The notes: generated by a model from the letters alone, not told the origin. A stretch of DNA of 64,000 nucleotides from Oscillospiraceae bacterium (GCA_015067305.1 SVMT01000006.1:18751-82750); one strand, 5' to 3'. Shown: positions 12,240 to 55,058, counted from the first letter of the stretch. Made by a program: numbers and translations.

Positions 12240-12256
12240 TTATAATATAAGATTTT

Positions 12257-12294
12257 GTGGGAAAAACCTCTTTTCTGAAAAAGGTCTTTCCCAC
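12257..12294. repeat. Solo hairpin related to the module hairpins (probable bidirectional terminator)
   Basis: GTGGGAAAAACCTCTTTTC-tg-AAAAAGGTCTTTCCCAC between convergent genes, flanked by T- and A-rich runs. Confidence 0.5.
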
Positions 12295-12302
12295 ATGTTT
12301 TA

Positions 12303-15051: not shown

Positions 15052-15264
15052 GCGGGAGAAGAAACCTTATTCCTAAAAGGTTCTTCTCCCGCACCCCTAT
15101 TTCCAAAACTCGTTGGGGCTAATTGATTGCAGGCATTATTTGCGTTAGCTTTATTTTTTATACTTAGTAAAATGTGCGAATGCACGGCAAAAGTTTATTG
15201 GAAAGGGTTCGGGGGAAACCTGTTTCACACGTGCAAGCAAGTGCACAAAAATGGTTTCCCCGCG
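15052..15264 (+). repeat. Structured intergenic module, copy A
   Basis: HP1 at 15052-15092. 5' arm ACCCCTATTTCCAAAA at 15093-15108. GCGTTAGCT at 15142-15150. Hairpin GTGCgaatGCAC at 15174-15185. 3' arm AAAGTTTATTGGAAAGGGTT at 15190-15209. HP2 GGGGAAACC...GGTTTCCCC at 15210-15264, then TTTTTA. Confidence 0.7.
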
Positions 15265-18195: not shown

Positions 18196-19641
18196 ATGAA
18201 ACGCATTATTGCAACTATTTTATTGGCAGTGATGGTTCTTGTTACTTCATGTGGCGCAGAACCCCCTGTACTTATGGACTTCCTCGGTCCCCAGACTGAC
18301 GGAAATGACTTCGGTGGTGTTACCATCAGGATTAACTCTGACGATAACTCAGAGGCAGAAGATGACAGCGGTTCCAAAAAAGGTTTTATCGGTACGGTTT
18401 TGAGATATGACCTTGAAACAACACTCGGTGATGCTATCATGCAGAGAACGGAAGCTGTTAAAAAAGCTTTGAATGTCAATATTGAATATGAATGGGAAGT
18501 GGACAGAGAAACAGCGAGAATGAAGCTTATGTCAGGTTCCTGGGATGCTGATATCACAAGCTATACAGGTTTCGGCGGTATGCAGGACTTTGCAGCTGCG
18601 GGAATGCTTCATCCCATTGCTGATTTTGATATTATCGACCTCAATGAAACATGGAAATACGGCGGCCCCAACGTACTTGAAGGCGGTATGGTGAACTCTG
18701 TTCCTTACTCTGTTCAGCCTGTTTCCTGGCCCGGTTGGGAACCCATGGAATGTTACGCCCTTTTCTATAACAGAGATATCGGTTCTATGAACGGTATTAC
18801 AGATCCTCAGGAATTCTATGAAAATCAGACTTGGGTATGGGATACATTTGAATCCGAATATCTTGCAAAGGTAAATCTTACCAGCGGTTCTGAAAAAATT
18901 CCCTGTCTTGCTACAGGTATTGACCCTCTTTACTACTGTCTTGCATATTCCAACAATGTTCAGTATGTAGAAATGGGTGCTGACGGTGCTTTTAAGATAA
19001 ATGCCGCACCCAATGAACTTATTGAAGCCCTTTCAGAAGGCAGAGAATGGGTTACCATGTATGGCGACAACATTGATCTTTCCGAAGGTTATTGGAGCCA
19101 TGACAACTACGACGACGGTTACGGTTACATGACGCTTGCTTCTCCCGGTACCATCGTTACAGGTTCTCTTGCGTACGAAGTTGACTTCTTCTCCGGCATT
19201 ATGCCCTTCCCCTGCGGTCCTTCCGTTGAATACGGCAGATGGGGTCAGGCTATTCAGAGAATTGAAGGTTTCGGTATTCCCATTTCTTCCAAGGAACCCG
19301 AAGTTGCGGCTCATGTTATTTCCGAACTCTTTGAACCCTTTGATGAATACATCGGAACTCTCGAAGAATACTACAGCTCCATGGCTTTTGAAGAAGGTAC
19401 ATACGACACAGAGATCTACACATCTCTTGATGACTACTCCAAATATGACTACACATTTGCAGGCGGTTCCGACCTTATGAGAGGTGTTAACAACAACCTC
19501 GCAAGTGTTCTCCGTTCCTCCAAGGGTGTTGCTGAAGCTATTCAGTCATATTCAGGGCAGATCACCGTAATTGCTGAAAAATATATTCTCCCCAACTACG
19601 ACTATATGTACAACAATTATTATGCAAATCTTGAAAACTAA
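18196..19641 (+). CDS. Lipoprotein, extracellular solute-binding-protein-like (paralog 1)
   Basis: Signal peptide with lipobox LVTSC. 481 aa with an SBP-like layout. It has its own consensus promoter and terminator. By eye, roughly half of the positions are identical to the next gene. Confidence 0.65.
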   Translation: MKRIIATILLAVMVLVTSCGAEPPVLMDFLGPQTDGNDFGGVTIRINSDDNSEAEDDSGSKKGFIGTVLRYDLETTLGDAIMQRTEAVKKALNVNIEYEWEVDRETARMKLMSGSWDADITSYTGFGGMQDFAAAGMLHPIADFDIIDLNETWKYGGPNVLEGGMVNSVPYSVQPVSWPGWEPMECYALFYNRDIGSMNGITDPQEFYENQTWVWDTFESEYLAKVNLTSGSEKIPCLATGIDPLYYCLAYSNNVQYVEMGADGAFKINAAPNELIEALSEGREWVTMYGDNIDLSEGYWSHDNYDDGYGYMTLASPGTIVTGSLAYEVDFFSGIMPFPCGPSVEYGRWGQAIQRIEGFGIPISSKEPEVAAHVISELFEPFDEYIGTLEEYYSSMAFEEGTYDTEIYTSLDDYSKYDYTFAGGSDLMRGVNNNLASVLRSSKGVAEAIQSYSGQITVIAEKYILPNYDYMYNNYYANLEN

Positions 19642-19871: not shown

Positions 19872-21293
19872 ATGAAGAAAGTTTTAGCTTTTTTACTTTT
19901 GGCTGTAATGTTAGTTTCAACTTCATGTGCGGCTGAACCTATGACCCTGCTCCCGTTCATTAACGATTCGGATTCAAGCGGAGTGAACTACGGTGGTGTT
20001 GAGATCATCATCAATTCAAGTGATAACGCAATGAATGATGACGAGACATATTGGGCTCAGATTCTCAAATACGATACCAATACAAATTACGGCGACGCTA
20101 TTCTTGCGAGAGTTGCCGATGTTGAGAAAAAACTCGGTGTTAAGATCGGTTATGACACGGAAGCAGACGGAGAGGATATTCTTCCTCTGCAAATCATGGC
20201 AGGTTCTTATGTAGGTGACATCGTTAATTATACAGCTTTCGGTGCTATGGAAAATTTTGCATCTGCAAATCTCCTTTTCCCCATGACCAATTTTGATCAT
20301 ATAGATCTTGCTGAGACATGGAAATACGGTAATGCAAACGTTCTCGAAGGTGCAATGGTCAAATCTGTTCCTTATGCTGTTCAGCCCGTTCAGTGGCCTA
20401 ACTGGGAACCTTCAGGTATTTCTTCCATGATTTACAATATGGATATGATTTCAGAATTATCTCTTACGGATCCCCACGAATTTTGGGAAAATGAGAATTG
20501 GTATTGGGATACATTTGAAGATACATATCTTAATGCTACAACGGGACTTGCTGAAGATGAATGGATGCTTTCCGCTTCCGAATACATTTTCTGGTACGGT
20601 CTTATGTATTCCAATGATGTGCAGTTCGTTTCTGCAAATGCAGATGGTGAATACGTTGTAAATTCCATGCCGCAGTCTATTATAGAAGCTGTTCAGGAAG
20701 GTGTAGACTGGTATCAGAACCATAGAGATATTGTAAACCTTTTCAGTGAGTATTGGAGTCATGAAGACTATGATAACGGTCTTTCCGTATTTACGGTTAC
20801 AGGCGCAACTACAGCAGTATCTGCCAGTATAGATGTGACTTCGGGTCTTATGCCTTTCCCTTGCGGCCCTTCTGCAACATACGGTACATGGCGTCAAGCA
20901 TTTGACAGAATTGAAGGTTTTGGTATTCCCATAACTTCACCTGAACCTGATATTGCTGCCCATGTTATTTCTGAACTTTTTGAACCCCTTGATGAATATC
21001 TCGGTGTATCACTTGAAGAATACTATAAAGAAATGATGTTCAATACAGAACTCGACGCAGAGATCTATATGGAACTTATTAAAGACGTTAGATATGATTA
21101 TACATTCCATGGCGGTTCAGACTTGATGAGAAGTGTAAACAATAATTTCTCAGGGGCTATCAAGTCAGGTAAAGCTGCAAATGAAGCTGCAGAAACATTC
21201 TCAAATCAGATTTCAGTGATTATGACCACATATGCACTTCCCAATTATGAGTATATGTATAAGAACTACTATTCTTTGGAAAACGCAGATTGA
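19872..21293 (+). CDS. Lipoprotein, extracellular solute-binding-protein-like (paralog 2)
   Basis: Lipobox VSTSC. Shares blocks with paralog 1: ETWKYG..NVLEG.MV.SVPY.VQPV.WP.WEP, GLMPFPCGPS, RIEGFGIPI.S.EP..AAHVISELFEP, YDYTF.GGSDLMR.VNNN. Confidence 0.65.
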   Translation: MKKVLAFLLLAVMLVSTSCAAEPMTLLPFINDSDSSGVNYGGVEIIINSSDNAMNDDETYWAQILKYDTNTNYGDAILARVADVEKKLGVKIGYDTEADGEDILPLQIMAGSYVGDIVNYTAFGAMENFASANLLFPMTNFDHIDLAETWKYGNANVLEGAMVKSVPYAVQPVQWPNWEPSGISSMIYNMDMISELSLTDPHEFWENENWYWDTFEDTYLNATTGLAEDEWMLSASEYIFWYGLMYSNDVQFVSANADGEYVVNSMPQSIIEAVQEGVDWYQNHRDIVNLFSEYWSHEDYDNGLSVFTVTGATTAVSASIDVTSGLMPFPCGPSATYGTWRQAFDRIEGFGIPITSPEPDIAAHVISELFEPLDEYLGVSLEEYYKEMMFNTELDAEIYMELIKDVRYDYTFHGGSDLMRSVNNNFSGAIKSGKAANEAAETFSNQISVIMTTYALPNYEYMYKNYYSLENAD

Positions 21294-27736: not shown

Positions 27737-27791
27737 TTTTTATGAAAATAGTAGTATATTAAGATATCGGTTTCTTTTTTTGATGAGGAAA

Positions 27792-27829
27792 GGGGAAACC
27801 TTTTTCTGCGAAAAGAAAAAGGTTTCCCC
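27792..27829. repeat. Solo hairpin of the GGGGAAACC/GGTTTCCCC type
   Basis: GGGGAAACCTTTTTCT-gcgaaa-AGAAAAAGGTTTCCCC between convergent genes. It is preceded by TTTTTTTGatGAGGAAAG, which resembles the module's 3' arm. Confidence 0.6.
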
Positions 27830-27850: not shown

Positions 27851-28216
27851 TTAATTCATATTGGCGTGTTTTTTTATTGCTTCAAAAGTCTCGTCACTTA
27901 TTACGTGTTCGATCTTGCAGGCATCGGCTGAGGCGATTTCTTCTGGTACACCAATGCGAGTGAAAAATTCTGTGAGCAGTTCATGTCTTTCATATATCTT
28001 AATTGCTCTTGCTTCACCCTGTTCCGTCAGCGTTATGTATCCTTTTTGGTCAACAAGAATTAGCCCCTCATCTTTCAGCAACCCGATGGCGCGGCTGATG
28101 CTGGGTTTTGAATATCCCGTATGGTTTACGATGTCGATCGAGCGAACTCCCGACATCTGTTGACTTAGCACGTAAATGTTTTCAAGATACATTTCGCCTG
28201 ATTCGTGTATGTTCAT
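27851..28216 (-). CDS. DtxR/MntR-family metal-dependent transcriptional regulator
   Basis: HESGEMYLENIY...SIDIVNHTGYSKPSISRAIGLLKDEGLI winged HTH plus a metal-binding helix region. The ATG at 28216 gives the canonical N-terminus. Confidence 0.85.
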   Translation of the reverse strand: MNIHESGEMYLENIYVLSQQMSGVRSIDIVNHTGYSKPSISRAIGLLKDEGLILVDQKGYITLTEQGEARAIKIYERHELLTEFFTRIGVPEEIASADACKIEHVISDETFEAIKKHANMN

Positions 28217-28490
28217 GGTCATCTCCAAGATCAAATTTGTTATCCTCATAATGATACCATAAAATCGTGGGAAAATCAAGGGCTTTTTTGTGTTATTTGC
28301 TGATTTTTCAAATATTATGCGGTTTGTATTTTATTGCAATTATTTGTGAATCCTGTTGACTGTTAATCTTGAATATGTTATAATATAAGCGTAATTAAAT
28401 CTGTTTAAGAGGTGTAAAATTAGCCGTTATTCTCGGAATTATGGCTGTATATGGGTTATTATCTAAATATTTGAAAAAGGAGAGATCTGT

Positions 28491-45158: not shown

Positions 45159-46712
45159 ATGAAAATTTTTTCCGGTGTGTTCCCAATAAGACTCGGTAAT
45201 CCTGTTGCGAACGCTGAAACTATTATTGATATCATAAACAAAAATAACGACGCAGATATTTATCTTTTCCCTGCGTACTGCCTTGAGGGTGCTACTTGCG
45301 GCCGCCTTATTGACTTCAAATACTTCAAGGAAGAGATCGAAGAAGCTATCGACAAGCTCTGCGAATTTACAGAAGACAATAAAAAGATCATCGTAACAGC
45401 GGCTCACGGTCATGATAATATCGTTATCAGAGACGGCGATGTGCTAAAGAACACCACTTTTATGTGTGACGGTAAGAAAGTTTCCGTTTCTCAGTCCGTG
45501 CGTGAGGCTTTTGACCTGCTCCTTCTCCCCACTTCCATGCCCAGCTACCCATGTATTCAGAACGATGTTATAGAATTCTGCGCAAAAGCATCTCTTGATA
45601 AAAAATGCTCCGTCGCTGTTGCTAACTCAGGTTTTGGTGAAAGTACAGCGGATAATGTGTTCAAGGGCTTTGCGGGTATCTTTAAAAACGGTATCATCGT
45701 TGATTTCATGGCTCAGGACGAGCCCGAATTAACTTGCTGTATTCAGGATTACGCAAAAGAAACAGGCCTTGTTTATGCAAGAAACCGTGCTATTGATTAT
45801 AAAATTCCTTATTTCGGTAAGAATGAGCCCAAGAGATACCTTTCCGAACTTTTCAAACTTCAGATCCAGGCTCTTTATACCAGACTTAAAAGTTCAGGTA
45901 TTTCCCGTGTTGTGGTAAATGTTTCAGGCGGTTTGGATTCCACACTTGCGCTCATGGTTGCTTCTGAGACAATGAAGATGTTGAAAATGCCCTCTCAGAA
46001 TATTATTGCGATCACTCAGCCGTGCTTCGGAACAGGCGGCAGAACATATAATAACGCAAAAAAACTCATGGAACTTCTCAATGTTACCTCTTTTGAGATA
46101 GATATCAAAAATGCCGTAACTACACATCTTTCCGACATCGGTGCTGATATCAATAACCACGATGTGGTTTACGAAAACGCTCAGGCGAGAGAACGTGCGC
46201 AGGTTGCTTTTGACATGGCAAACAAGTACAACGCAATCGTTATGGGTACAGGCGATATGTCCGAAGCGGCTCTCGGATTCTGCACTTTCGGGGGCGATAC
46301 TCTCGGTCATTACAATGTGAATGCTACAGTTCCCAAGACCGTTATGCAGCACCTTATCCGTCAGCTTTCCGCTGAGAATGAAGGCGAACTCGGTCAGGTA
46401 CTCCTTGATGTTGTTGAAACTCCCATCAGTCCTGAACTCAAAGAGGATCAGAAAACGGAAGATATCGTAGGACCGTATATTCTCCATGATTTCATCATGT
46501 ACTATTTTGCAAAACTTCACCTCTCCAAAGAGGATATCCGTCATTATATGCTCGCGACTTTTGAAGAATACGATGACGATGAGATCGACAAGTGGCTCGA
46601 AGTCTTCTTCAAACGTTTCAAGGCAAGTCGATTCAAGCGTGCGGCTGCTTGCGAGGGTGCAAACCTTATCGGTTTCACGCTCCCGTACATTCCCGCTGAC
46701 GCTGAGATGTAA
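45159..46712 (+). CDS. nadE: NAD+ synthetase with a degenerate N-terminal CN-hydrolase-like domain
   Basis: SGGLDS PP-loop and a C-terminal NAD-synthase pattern. The N-terminal ~215 aa aligns by eye to the glutaminase domain but lacks the catalytic residues. Confidence 0.8.
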   Translation: MKIFSGVFPIRLGNPVANAETIIDIINKNNDADIYLFPAYCLEGATCGRLIDFKYFKEEIEEAIDKLCEFTEDNKKIIVTAAHGHDNIVIRDGDVLKNTTFMCDGKKVSVSQSVREAFDLLLLPTSMPSYPCIQNDVIEFCAKASLDKKCSVAVANSGFGESTADNVFKGFAGIFKNGIIVDFMAQDEPELTCCIQDYAKETGLVYARNRAIDYKIPYFGKNEPKRYLSELFKLQIQALYTRLKSSGISRVVVNVSGGLDSTLALMVASETMKMLKMPSQNIIAITQPCFGTGGRTYNNAKKLMELLNVTSFEIDIKNAVTTHLSDIGADINNHDVVYENAQARERAQVAFDMANKYNAIVMGTGDMSEAALGFCTFGGDTLGHYNVNATVPKTVMQHLIRQLSAENEGELGQVLLDVVETPISPELKEDQKTEDIVGPYILHDFIMYYFAKLHLSKEDIRHYMLATFEEYDDDEIDKWLEVFFKRFKASRFKRAAACEGANLIGFTLPYIPADAEM

Positions 46713-46736
46713 TTTTTAAGTGAATATATTTTTTAT

Positions 46737-47079
46737 GGGGAACCGTTTTTCTTTTCGCGGAAAAAGAAAAACGGTTCCCCAAACCCCTCCAAAAAAGAAA
46801 ACCGATGCTGGAGGGTCCTGTTAAAATATTATTTTTATAAAAATATATTCTAAACGGATTCTTTTCGCGGAAAAAGAAAAAAGGTTCACCAAACCCTTCC
46901 AAAAAAGAAAACCGCTGATTGGGGCATCTTGGAAAAAATGTCCCAATAGCTGATGCATGGAAAAATGCATTTGCGATAGCTATTGGGGCTTTTAGTTTTG
47001 ATTTTGAGCTTTGCTCGGTAAAAGTTTTTTTGGATAGGGGTATGGGGAAAACCTATTTTTACAAAAAATGGTTTTCCCC
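46737..47079 (+). repeat. Structured intergenic module, copy B (expanded)
   Basis: HP1 is a perfect 19-bp stem at 46737-46780. A direct duplication links 46751-46813 and 46861-46923. Inner hairpin CCCAATAGCT / AGCTATTGGG at 46942-46987. Hairpin GAGCtttGCTC at 47006-47016. 3' arm at 47021-47040. HP2 at 47044-47079. Confidence 0.7.
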
Positions 47080-47101
47080 ATATAAAACTTAAATATTTCC
47101 C

Positions 47102-50100
47102 TTATGCTCTCCAGTTGGGGTTATAGGTTGAAATGTCAAATCCGTTGAGCATTTGCACTTTGAAATTCTTCACGGCGCAATACTTTTCATTGATTTTATC
47201 GTGGCAGAGATTAGCCAGCGCATGGTAGAGTGGCTGATGAACAGAGAGATGTACAAAATTGTATACGGAGAAATTCTTCACACCGATTTCTTTCAGCTTT
47301 TTCCGATTTTCAATGATCGTTTCTGCGTCTGACGGCCAAGAGAATATGCCGCCGTAGAATTTTACGTTGTATTTTGCCGCAATTTCCATGTACTTTTTTG
47401 CGCCCTCAATGATTTTTTTGAGGTCATGAAAATGGAAACGTCTGACGGTTTCAGTTACTTTGCACTTTTCGATGTATTTTTTCATATCAATGAATTCGCC
47501 ATCCATGCAGTCGTCAATTTGCTCGTAAAGCTCCATAGTATCCTGGCAAATGCAGTCTATAAGTCCGTTTTTCGCCCAAGTTTCAATGTCAATGCCGATA
47601 TGCTTTGCTGTTTCAGGGCTGTAATCCGTAATAATGTTTATTTTAACGTGTCTGCCTGCGAATTCATCAAGCTCTTTGCGGAGTTTCGTCATGAATTCCG
47701 TCATGAATTCACACCATATTCCGTGCATTCTGGGGTCTTTTATCGGCAGCAAGCAAGGGTCAATATCGGGATATTTTTCATGGAAACGTTTGATTACGGG
47801 TTCTTCAAAGCCTATCATGATTCCTCTGTGGAGAATAAGCGAGACTCCGTCAAAGCCATAGCCGAGCGCTTCTTTGAAGCCGTTTATCGCATAGTCCCAA
47901 ACTTCGGGATATGCAAAGGAGCAAACCTGAACAGTTCTTCCGTCACGGGTCTTGCAGAACATCTCCGAATGTTTTTGCACGAATCCGGTTTTGATATGAC
48001 CGTCGAAATCAATGCCCAAATCTGCAATACTCATTCGGTAGGCGGCAAGAGCTTCCACATTGATGCTATGGAGAAAATCTATCTTTGTTTTGTAGTATTT
48101 TTCTTTGTTTTCTCGGTGGACTGTATCTCCGTCAGCAATGAGTCTTGATGCTTTCCTCATCATTGTTTCGGGGGATTTTTTAACATCGTAGTCTGATGTT
48201 ATTTCCATGGAACAGATTTCGGCATCTGAATTTTTAAGTCTTGAATACCTCGATAAAACATTATCGTTTTCTGCAATGGCTTCCATGGTGTTTTCGTTGC
48301 CGTCGTAGTGATAATGAGCGTTTTTATTGCTTTTTGTGGAGGTATATGCCTTATACTCTTCCACCTCTTCGGTGGTCATTTGTTCAAATTTAAACCAAGC
48401 AATGGCTACGCCTTTAGCATTGAATCCTTTCGGCTTTTTCAGAATGATATCATTGTCGCTCATGTCTGCACATTTCCAGAAAAACTCCTGAGCATATTCG
48501 TAAGGTGCCCATTTGGACGGGGTTCCCTCCTTGGGCGGAACTACCGATTCGAATGCTATGTCAGAGGAAAGTTTCAAGTGGAATCTGTTCTGAAATTCCA
48601 TTTTGATAGTGCAAATATATATTCTGTGCCAACCTTTTAACTGCGGTGCGAGTATTACATCTTCAGGCACTGTTTCTTCTCCTGCTACCAATGCTTTCCC
48701 TTTGGTTTCGCCGATCTCGTAGTCCATTGCGAACCAGTTTTTGGAAGTGAGATCTGCGGTTACGGCATTTTTATTTTTTACTATTTGCGTGAGATCTGAA
48801 AATAGGATTTCCTTCATTATTAAAACCTTCTTTTGAGAATATTTATTTTTCAACCAAGCGGCATGTGTTGATTCTTTGTCGAAAGTCTTGCCTGCGGAAG
48901 CGTAGTCGATAAGAATAAGCTCGTCACCGTCTGTTGTCGGGACTGAAACTGTAAGCTCTGCATCGGGAATCACTTTGTTTAAGAGGATTTTTCCGTCAAC
49001 GGTTCCGTCCTTATTGAAGTTTATGGAAACAGGTGTTTTCGGATCAACGCCTGCTCTGCGGTCGATTGCAAGTATCAAAGCGCCTTTGCGCAATGCAACG
49101 TAATCATTTTTATAGGGTGAATCTTCGGGAGGATCTATGCGGAAAATGCGGGAATCAAATTCGATTTCCACAATATTTCCCGTTTCCCATGTCTTTTTGA
49201 TATGCTTATAGCCATTTTCTGCCGGAATATCCTCATGGTTTACTTTGATTTCAGTGTTTTTGCTCCATTCGGGTATTCTGAGTGCCAGATCAAACAGCTC
49301 TTCTTCACAGTTAACAGTAATTTTAATGGAATTTCCGTAAGGGTAGTCCGATTTTATATCAAATTTTGCGATTTTTCCGCTGGGGGTTTGTGCTGAAAGG
49401 TGACCGTTAAGATAGAAATTCAGAACTATACCATCTTCGGAGATCAATGCGGCGTGGGATGCAACCGTTCCGAATGCCATTGGGCTGATGCACGCACAGC
49501 AACCGTAAAAACTTCCGTCGCTCATAACTTTCATTCCGCCTGTCATTATCCCTTTTTCGGTTGCACGCAGGGCACTGTAACTATCAAAAGGCAGGAATCC
49601 GCAGTAATTTTTGCCGTCTGAAGAAACTTTTACTTCGTTTTTGTGAGTATTTGCCGCACCGATAAACGCATTGAAGAATGTCTGTTCAATGCAATCCGCA
49701 TAAGCAGGGTCTCCCGTTAGACGCAAAACCTGACCGCAGTATTTCATCCATGTGACGCTGACGCAAGTCTCTTGCATTATGCCATCAAATTTCGGGTCAA
49801 CCTGGCTGAGACGTGTGTTGTCGAAGATCTCGTGAGTGCAGCCGCTGCAACCGATGATCGAAATTTCATTTTCACGGACCTTTTCTGCAAAGTTGATTAC
49901 CGCTTTTTTGTATTTTTCAATACCCGTCAGACGGTAGTATTCCGCAAGCCCCTCAAAGCATGACATCGTTTCATAAGCTTTCTGTTCAGGGTATTGGTGG
50001 GGGAGAAGCTCATTTTCGTATGCCAATTTAAAAATTGTAAGTTCGTTTTCCGAACCGTGGCAGACCTCCACAATGTAATCTGCAAAATCCATGTATTCTT

Positions 50101-54782: not shown

Positions 54783-54809
54783 TTTATTATAATTTTTATA
54801 TTTTTTTAT

Positions 54810-55037
54810 GGGGGAAACCCTCTTTTCGCGTGAAAAGAGAGTTTCCCCCATACCCCTTTCCGAGAAAAGCGATACAGGGGCTTTATCAAAAAAGACTAAA
54901 AGCTAACGCAAATTCAGATCATGTATTATTGGCGTTAGCTATTGATCCTTTACCGTTTATTTTTTGTACGAAGTACAGTTAAAGTTTTTTTGGAAAGGGT
55001 ACGGGAAAACCAATTTTTACAAAAAATGGTTTTCCCG
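54810..55037 (+). repeat. Structured intergenic module, copy C (cleanest)
   Basis: HP1 at 54810-54849. 5' arm at 54851-54870. AGCTAACGC / GCGTTAGCT at 54901-54940. GTACgaaGTAC at 54966-54976. 3' arm at 54981-55001. HP2 at 55002-55037. Confidence 0.7.
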
Positions 55038-55058
55038 TAATTTTAATATTAAATTACA

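Follow-up and report, generated by a model that had tools for sequence, protein, structure and literature searches.

A probable BIME/REPIN-like cluster of dispersed hairpin units downstream of nadE in an Oscillospiraceae bacterium

Described palindromic repeats and the cluster at the nadE locus

Repetitive extragenic palindromes (REPs), bacterial interspersed mosaic elements (BIMEs) and REPINs, which are REP doublets forming hairpins (Bertels & Rainey 2011, PMC3116915; PMC3337134), have been characterized almost entirely in Proteobacteria, and the spread, persistence and host functions of such repeats are still debated. A REP carries a GTAG or CGTC tetranucleotide at one end of its palindrome, and no such families were reported in Clostridia by Di Nocera et al. 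(PMC3733652); vertical inheritance and long persistence have been reported for REPINs (PMC3116915; PMC3337134). Our comparison with REPs and BIMEs draws on Di Nocera 2013 (PMC3733652) and Nunvar 2010 (PMC2817692). Here we analyse a stretch of 64,000 nucleotides from an Oscillospiraceae bacterium (GCA_015067305.1 SVMT01000006.1:18751-82750; 41% GC), referred to below as the window. Its positions 46736–47082, designated copy B, lie in the 389-nt spacer between the converging genes nadE and a GH127-family gene and probably represent a BIME/REPIN-like cluster made of three copies of a dispersed REP-like unit. The repeats form a new family of a familiar bacterial kind and not a special RNA switch; copy B is an ordinary, though old, conserved and rearranged, member of it.

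The recurrent unit occurs in two types, alpha and beta, and spans ~55–80 nt: a near-perfect palindromic hairpin of 35–46 nt with a stem of 15–20 bp, bordered on one side only by ~20 conserved nucleotides. In the alpha unit an arm, AAAGTTTTTTGGAAAGGGT, and one variable base precede the palindrome CGGG(G/A)AAACC-T5-loop-A5-GGTTT(C/T)CCCG. The beta unit combines a hairpin with the top CTTTTC...GAAAAG and a tail, ACCC(C)TCCAAA(A)GAAAAGCGAT (ACCCCTCCAAAAAAGAAAACCGAT). A pattern built from the 3′ arm and the foot of HP2, the alpha-unit hairpin of copy B, was scanned against one genome per GTDB species, with >110 stretches among the matches listed; the window and ~120 loci chosen by the exact alpha-unit pattern were then searched with an nhmmer profile. 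In an alignment of 62 units GGAAAGGGT-N precedes the stem and the sequence after the stem is variable, and in singlets conservation sets in sharply ~20 nt before the stem.

The preliminary description of this locus had treated the module as a single element. It resolves into two inverted copies of the smaller unit, which is mostly found alone: the profile counted ~220 units, comprising 36 inverted doublets and ~148 singlets, a singlet excess of ~4:1. Their density is ~2 units per 10 kb in the pattern-selected loci, from which the genome-wide copy number is extrapolated. Doublets have their hairpins outward and their arms inward, with spacers of 19–470 nt, and about 11 more doublet-like cases have a divergent left unit. 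Among 78 well-scored singlets, a second, divergent hairpin lies on the arm side in ~15 and on the hairpin side in none (0/78). A typical module runs from an inverted beta unit through a variable inner hairpin to an alpha unit, the beta type forming the left half of modules in the window, in the JAZTZU metagenome-assembled genome (MAG) and in a verrucomicrobial MAG.

Copy B follows the order beta, spacer, truncated beta, inner hairpin, alpha, with one of its three unit copies truncated. All features reported earlier for this copy downstream of nadE were recovered, exactly or within 1–2 nt. HP1, the hairpin of the first beta unit, begins 23 nt beyond the nadE stop codon (46710–46712) and has a 6-nt loop, CGCGGA; its perfect stem, given before as 19 bp, extends to 20 bp. 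Of the 5′ stem of the second beta unit only the top 7 nt are left, whereas the loop, the 3′ hairpin half and the tail are present. This unit belongs to a direct repeat (46749–46829 versus 46859–46939; offset 110 nt, 83% identity over 81 nt) with just three substitutions within the first 56 nt, in agreement with the partial duplication recorded at a ~110-bp offset. The inner hairpin has the stem strands CCCAATAGCT (at 46942) and AGCTATTGGG (at 46978) around two ATGCAT copies (46953 and 46965); both it and the 3′ arm (AAAGTTTTTTTGGATAGGGG at 47021) are where they had been placed. The inner hairpin contains GCGATAGCT, a motif common to the other two modules of the window, copies A and C. The position occupied by a small hairpin just upstream of the alpha arm covaries, reading GTGC-GAAT-GCAC in copy A and TGTAC-GAA-GTACA in copy C. 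In primary sequence the alpha arm is the best-conserved part of the family, and HP2 ends 19 nt from the GH127 stop codon.

Copies A and C and a singlet elsewhere in the window bear out the view of copy B as the expanded form of a repeated element. The 64-kb window holds eight units, in intergenic DNA throughout, and all its long near-perfect palindromes are members of the hairpin-plus-flank family. Relative to shuffles, the 3′-arm motif is found three times (0.01 expected) and the hairpin-foot motif ten times (0.98 expected).

Like REPs and BIMEs, the units are short extragenic palindromes conserved in sequence at one end only. They are numerous, generally follow genes, have no target-site duplication and appear as singlets, inverted dimers or larger clusters. 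The alpha and beta types may correspond to the alternating Y and Z units of BIMEs: alpha and beta pair in inverted orientation in the window and in the JAZTZU and CAYWEO MAGs, but copy B (beta, beta′, alpha) has two units in direct orientation, and a locus of Verrucomicrobia bacterium GWC2_42_7 (L025) has a same-orientation pair. As in REPINs, two inverted units with their spacer can fold as one long hairpin, the doublet has been copied whole in several MAGs, and the nadE copy is persistently conserved. The differences from REPs concern size (55–80 nt against 20–40 nt, with longer, nearly perfect stems), the one-sided tag (a ~20-nt conserved stretch, not GTAG/CGTC) and the hosts, which include Clostridia; no gene for a REP-associated tyrosine transposase (RAYT) is linked to the present units, and, unlike REP families, which are usually confined to one lineage, the family has near-identical members in different phyla. 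Unlike in REPINs, singlets dominate, the long spacers (57–470 nt) carry a hairpin of their own, the two halves are different unit types, and the defining single-copy RAYT was not found in the window and ~1 Mb of loci with three Y1 queries. We call the family REP/BIME-like as a working term and do not file it in REP-RAYT, because its units have neither the tag nor the size of REPs.

The GWC2_42_7 locus shows seven profile matches, at least four of them well-scored units, in one 8-kb stretch; at 1112–1354 it contains two complete same-orientation units at a distance of 190 nt, both with an inner hairpin of their own behind them. The nadE locus is therefore not alone in having a cluster that exceeds two units.

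Modular intergenic repeats co-transcribed as stable hairpins are also represented by BOX of Streptococcus pneumoniae, in which boxB copy number varies, and by Correia/NEMIS of Neisseria. The long duplex stems of Correia elements have been shown to be RNase III substrates; these elements generate a duplicated TA and contain an IHF site, and BOX elements are not known to have terminal perfect palindromes. The present family is likewise modular and intergenic, presumably co-transcribed with neighbouring genes, with an internal module variable in copy number and long stems that are plausible RNase III substrates. It differs from both in having no sequence similarity to them, and neither a TA duplication nor an IHF site was seen in its units.

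Units occur in many MAGs of ruminant and other gut Clostridia, Eubacteriales and Oscillospiraceae (42–56% GC), in an Opitutales MAG (48% GC) and Verrucomicrobia bacteria GWC2_42_7 and GWF2_51_19, and in deltaproteobacterial/Thermodesulfobacteriota contigs of 2.7–4.7 Mb (55–62% GC); host GC ranges from 41% to 67%. The named homologues of the window's nadE are from uncultured Clostridia. The cross-phylum presence is not a binning error, because all named homologues of a unit-adjacent gene on the Opitutales contig are from Verrucomicrobiota. The copy C alpha unit is identical to an alpha unit of the Opitutales MAG at 53 of 58 positions and is closer to it than to copy B. Mean unit identity is 0.79–0.90 within a MAG and 0.76–0.83 between MAGs, both biased upward by the exact-pattern search. 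Several MAGs hold many similar copies each, and in the JAZTZU and CAYWEO MAGs whole doublets of ~170–250 nt recur nearly unchanged. Literature searches returned no relevant described repeat family in Oscillospiraceae, Ruminococcaceae or Verrucomicrobia, and the hairpin-plus-flank family appears to be undescribed and unusually widespread.

These properties make the family useful: it unites uncultured ruminant-gut Clostridia, Verrucomicrobiota and deltaproteobacterial MAGs, its units are 80–90% identical across phyla, and for at least one copy, compared at an orthologous site, conservation clearly exceeds the neutral expectation. It would be a good system for asking about cross-phylum movement and domestication of repeats in 3′-untranslated regions (3′-UTRs). 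In practice, the units cause false calls of small open reading frames (ORFs), mark rearrangement breakpoints and could mislead searches for structured RNA.

Full modules of ~170 nt are found in the CAYWEO Opitutales MAG (L013, L031, L048, L056, L066, L069, L092, L094, L107, L110) in the order beta hairpin, tail, inner hairpin GGAAGGCATTTTT...AAAAATGCCTTCC, arm, alpha hairpin. Distally, the inner hairpin differs from copy to copy but remains self-complementary, and in some of them the alpha hairpin and arm are jointly swapped for a G-rich variant, AAGGGGGAGGT-CCGGAGGGGGTGC.

The nadE locus in related genomes

The window corresponds to the Joint Genome Institute (JGI) metagenome contig Ga0216340_10000967, identical across the 7,554 nt compared. 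An independent NCBI MAG (GCA_045637625.1, contig JAZTZU010000075, locus L002) has a nadE product with 94% amino acid identity to that of the window, the genes sharing 85% of nucleotides and 54% of four-fold degenerate sites. Downstream of it lies the same beta/truncated-beta/alpha architecture: a perfect 21-bp HP1, tail, spacer, 5′-truncated second copy (offset 109 nt), an inner hairpin different from and shorter than that of copy B, 3′ arm and HP2. HP1 differs between the two loci by compensatory changes on both strands. Because a genome with only 54% four-fold identity shares the architecture, the duplication is ancient rather than a product of assembly, and its earlier reading as true sequence holds. 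By this sequence comparison it predates the split of the window and JAZTZU lineages.

The locus is polymorphic among relatives. The expanded doublet of the window and L002 is represented by the left unit only, followed by unrelated DNA with ordinary terminators, in metagenome contig L120, whose nadE is 98% identical in nucleotides to that of JAZTZU; the more distant L123 has a plain 36-nt spacer after nadE with a classic bidirectional terminator and no unit. Comparison with related genomes thus recovered the duplication in L002 and not in L120 or L123. The suggestion that the family evolves by local rearrangement is supported by L120, a conspecific of the JAZTZU MAG with the left unit only; the duplication itself, being older than the window/JAZTZU split, is no recent turnover. 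The nadE relatives at 91% and 88% amino acid identity have no unit, different downstream genes and no remaining synteny. An attempt to derive exact insertion boundaries from filled and empty nadE loci failed, the L123 spacer being wholly different and the 91% and 88% relatives non-syntenic.

Homology of the first beta tail to L002 and to the L120 singlet stops at about GGGAG, and L002 and L120 diverge completely just past the end of that tail (...GGGAG). Therefore, the unit boundary coincides with a rearrangement breakpoint within one species.

Two orthologous pairs elsewhere show unit identities of 96% against 63% at four-fold sites and of 84% against 77%, the latter with compensatory stem changes; both pairs are biased samples, as both members were found via the search pattern.

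A 57-aa ORF with a TTG start was called by JGI at window positions 46919–47092 on the plus strand (L001 4761–4934), spanning the inner hairpin and the alpha unit. The repeat has almost certainly given rise to a spurious gene here, since the length and sequence of the inner region differ in L002. Its product was not on record when sought for counting independent assemblies.

Mechanism and competing explanations

Under the BIME/REPIN-like interpretation, the units would be non-autonomous DNA that spreads through the action in trans of a single-strand HUH/RAYT-like enzyme recognising hairpins. Once in place they would act as co-transcribed 3′-UTR hairpins, tolerated or used as 3′-end barriers or stabilisers. 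The truncated beta may have arisen by local duplication of the beta 3′ half, or a second beta may have arrived and then been truncated.

The hairpins are well maintained. Across the 62 aligned units, 95.5% of cells in a 16-bp stem are paired, the foot pair occurs in all four Watson–Crick forms (UA 28, GC 16, CG 7, AU 3), and the 67 double-change cells were reached by 0 of 500 shuffles; orthologous hairpins also show compensatory changes. The mean stem length is 17 bp. Most centres are 2 nt, so most hairpins are perfect palindromes, and G.T and A.C mismatches (15 versus 10) reveal no strand preference. Strand asymmetry of this sort, sought as a sign of an RNA-level function, was thus not found. 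The palindromes look DNA-like, in line with the occurrence of units in both orientations between co-directional genes. The units also behave like insertions: converging spacers are longer where units are present, target-site duplications were not found and the nadE locus varies among relatives. Their many similar copies in several MAGs and their cross-phylum spread favour the same interpretation.

Several observations weigh against the BIME/REPIN-like interpretation. A distance of 3–25 nt to a stop codon is far commoner for the hairpins than for the arm side, which hints at a 3′-end function or a target preference. ORF clustering found no recurrent ORF adjoining the units in ~1 Mb of loci, and ORFs bracketed by or between inverted units looked housekeeping-like on inspection, with no mobilising gene among them. 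A tblastn search of the window and the ~1 Mb of loci with three Y1 transposase queries gave a best E of 0.11, which is not significant. Because no transposase of any kind was found, we infer mobility from distribution alone. Copy densities and within-family similarity are biased upward, because the loci were found by the exact alpha-unit pattern. Neither the GTAG nor the CGTC tag is present in the 62-unit alignment. Finally, units at the nadE locus are better conserved than four-fold sites (87–89% for the beta copies and 79% for alpha versus 54%), which points to purifying selection, i.e. a host function, or to homogenisation rather than to pure selfish insertion. A host-function reading is kept alive by the nadE copy, an unbiased sample whose conservation exceeds the neutral expectation, and by the closeness of hairpins to stop codons.

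Such a reading would regard the units as native 3′-end punctuation, namely host-selected factor-dependent terminators or 3′-exonuclease barriers, with a doublet supplying one per converging gene and the nadE copy locally duplicated; we consider it unlikely. With ORFs of at least 80 codons, a stop codon is found no more than 80 nt upstream of the hairpin in 107 of 137 units, mostly at 3–25 nt, in a gene–hairpin–tail orientation; the hairpin side abuts the gene boundary and the arm side is usually >100 nt from the next gene. REP elements of E. coli, too, are often close to stop codons. Doublets are situated between converging genes in 14 of 27 cases and between co-directional genes in 13. Units between co-directional genes occur in both orientations (21 versus 12), and some have the hairpin turned toward a gene start, which a 3′-end element does not explain. 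Conservation of orthologous units above four-fold sites and the classic bidirectional terminator of L123 at the same place also suit punctuation.

Like intrinsic bidirectional terminators, the units can lie between converging genes and have a hairpin with a GC foot no more than ~25 nt from the stop codon. They differ in lacking a U-tract on either strand (in copy B HP1 is followed by AACCCCTCC and HP2 by TATAAAAC), in a primary sequence conserved across phyla and in coexisting with canonical terminators: L120 has the unit first and a canonical terminator after it. A terminator scan of 46400–47400 gave no terminator-like site. Within the window, unit-followed genes lack a canonical terminator and other genes have one, as expected if the units replaced terminators; this idea was rejected, since it fails family-wide, canonical terminators being found in 30%, 40% and 33% of converging spacers with 0, 1 and 2 units. 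Moreover, a host-specific terminator would not stay 80–90% identical across Clostridia, Verrucomicrobiota and deltaproteobacterial MAGs of 61–67% GC. Median converging spacers measure 76 nt without units and 233–276 nt with them.

More speculatively, and with a comparably low probability, the alpha and beta units could constitute an undescribed, horizontally spreading system of a hairpin and a 20-nt head in gut Clostridia, Verrucomicrobiota and deltaproteobacteria, served by one conserved trans-acting protein and held by purifying selection as a 3′-end element, with the nadE copy a selected variant and not debris. If so, the protein would be an untagged RAYT-like HUH enzyme or a factor binding RNA or single-stranded DNA, and the selected nadE copy would include the extra truncated beta, which has been kept in lineages close to saturation at synonymous sites.

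It is improbable that copy B is a structured non-coding or cis-regulatory RNA, composed of HP1, a long-range helix around the inner hairpin and HP2, in which the duplication creates a two-state switch. The plus strand of copy B does fold to a very stable −137.3 kcal/mol (z = −9.5 relative to shuffles; −9.1 for copy C), and the terminal hairpins covary; the minus strand folds almost equally (z = −8.6), as expected of palindromic DNA, and the majority of hairpins are perfect palindromes around a 2-nt centre. Orthologs do not share a conserved inner region, and covariation lends the long-range helix no support. Pairing of tail and arm is no more stable for cognate partners (mean −14.1 kcal/mol) than for non-cognate ones (−15.4). 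In the verrucomicrobial MAG variant arms (e.g. AAGGGGGAGGT) change with their own hairpin and the opposite tail stays constant. Singlets keep an arm conserved as strongly as in doublets, with no partner in the adjacent 150 nt better than control DNA. Because the duplexes are non-specific, variant arms track their own hairpin and singlets lack a partner, the arms are conserved as sequence and not for mutual pairing; the helix between the 5′ and 3′ arms shows no sign of selection and is a by-product of two units facing each other.

Two alternative 5′ partners for the 3′ arm do exist, as had been noted, and the predicted ensemble is one-sided: the arm has 12.7 expected base pairs with the proximal tail of the truncated copy (predicted partner 46894–46907) and 1.0 with the distal tail. 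In the minimum-free-energy structure the first beta tail forms a local hairpin (CCCTCC 46785–46790 with GGAGGG 46810–46815), and HP1 is locked in the ensemble (19.4 expected base pairs). When the proximal arm is blocked, the 3′ arm moves to the distal one at a cost of ~9 kcal/mol with HP1 still locked, so that mutually exclusive folds of copy B are predicted to be possible, although rare. No conserved promoter was seen, a weak sigma-70-like match in the AT-rich spacer between the beta copies being absent from L002. Rfam 15 gave no window match at the gathering score and, in a permissive search, sub-threshold matches only, the strongest to generic hairpin (miRNA precursor) models; no Rfam family covers units in 120 kb of related loci.

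A miniature inverted-repeat transposable element derived from a DDE-type insertion sequence (IS), with the doublet as the element, hairpins and arms as its terminal inverted repeats and singlets as broken halves, likewise seems a poor candidate. The near-unchanged recurrence of doublets in the JAZTZU and CAYWEO MAGs, their inverted-repeat ends and the greater length of unit-bearing spacers would agree with it. Nevertheless, flanking direct repeats of at least 3 nt (3–6 nt sought as target-site duplication) were found at 0 of 25 doublets, and singlets are in excess with a hidden second hairpin in only the ~15 of 78 already mentioned. No transposase lies near any copy, and neither the fetched DNA nor plasmid and phage collections yielded a parent IS whose terminal inverted repeats match. 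BLAST of those collections produced no real unit matches, and a pattern scan of viral contigs gave a single match without a hairpin.

That repeat collapse or expansion generated the duplication is scarcely credible: a repetitive palindromic region can confuse short-read assemblers, but the JGI contig matches the window exactly and an independent MAG from another study has the same architecture in diverged sequence.

Integron attC sites were also rejected, as the R″/R′ cores (RYYYAAC ... GTTRRRY) that bracket an imperfect palindrome behind cassette ORFs were not found on inspection; the unit ends read GGGGAAACC and GGTTTCCCC, and the flanking genes are housekeeping genes of mixed orientation. 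Sigma-54 promoters, a Shine–Dalgarno-like function of the arm and mirror repeats (H-DNA) were dropped, no matching sequence features being present.

Feature coordinates and minor observations

Table 1. Features of the nadE–GH127 spacer, its flanking genes and other family members in the window, with identity to the orthologous locus L002
Feature	Position	Strand	Remarks	Identity to L002
nadE (NAD synthase)	45159..46712	+	ORF list; Pfam PF02540 (NAD_synthase), E = 1e-29	
Stop-to-HP1 spacer				54%
Left (beta) unit				89%
HP1, hairpin of beta unit 1	46736..46781	.	Perfect 20-bp stem 46736-46755 / 46762-46781, 100% complementary	
Beta unit 1 tail AACCCCTCCAAAAAAGAAAACCGATGCTGGAGGG (5′ arm of the preliminary description)	46782..46815	+		
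AT-rich spacer separating both beta copies	46816..46858	+		72%
Second beta unit, 5′-truncated	46859..46939	+	Direct repeat	87%
Inner hairpin	46936..46993	.	Stem 46942-46951 / 46978-46987	
Small hairpin GAGC-TTT-GCTC, just upstream of alpha arm	47006..47016	+	Read directly from sequence	
Right (alpha) unit				79%
Alpha-unit arm AAAAGTTTTTTTGGATAGGGG (3′ arm of the preliminary description)	47018..47040	+		
HP2, alpha-unit hairpin	47041..47082	.	47041-47060 / 47063-47082, 90% complementary; nhmmer E = 9e-9	
GH127-family beta-L-arabinofuranosidase-like gene, 1202 aa	47102..50710	-	Downstream converging gene	
Related hairpin GTGGGAAAAACC...GGTCTTTCCCAC	12256..12295	.	No conserved flank; T-rich run after	
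Copy A	15052..15262	+	Hairpin 15052-15092, tail, alpha arm 15189-15208, HP2 15210-15262	
Singlet unit	27775..27829	+	Arm and hairpin 27792-27829	
Copy C, canonical doublet	54807..55039	+	Beta hairpin 54807-54852, tail, inner hairpin, alpha arm 54981-55000, HP2 55000-55039	

Among the other family members, HP2 of copy A has an additional hairpin inserted in its loop, and the hairpin side of the singlet is ~20 nt from the end of a minus-strand gene (27851–28279). The related hairpin at 12256..12295 may be an ordinary terminator or a decayed unit. The motif GCG(T/A)TAGCT occurs in the inner regions of all three modules of the window (15142–15150, 46973–46981, 54901–54909 and 54932–54940); it is not enriched window-wide (11 versus 8.3 expected), and its sharing is therefore specific to the modules.

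In MAGs of ~54% GC Clostridia, a hairpin motif GTGCAGAT...ATCTGCAC recurs in the inner region of modules and on the arm side of many singlets (L009, L020, L036, L037, L067, L081, L087, L091, L096, L113, L114) and may be a third repeated component of these genomes. The hairpin top is broken by the same ~30-nt insert, GGGAGGTTCACGGAGTGAAACTCC, in L084 3016–3090 (fecal_MAG_213) and L014 7944–8000 (RGIG1778), which suggests a nested insertion or a shared variant. At an orthologous site (L061 5002–5100 and L111 3740–3830, reverse strand), a G-rich stretch lying downstream, with GTATTTTTGTTTG after it, pairs with the C-rich tail of the unit, and this tail forms the 5′ half of an apparent canonical intrinsic terminator.

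Elsewhere in the window, the adjacent genes 18196–19641 and 19872–21293 (~475–480 aa) look like tandem paralogues; they share 76–78% nucleotide identity between 19192–19355 and 20841–21004 and between 18797–18864 and 20464–20531.

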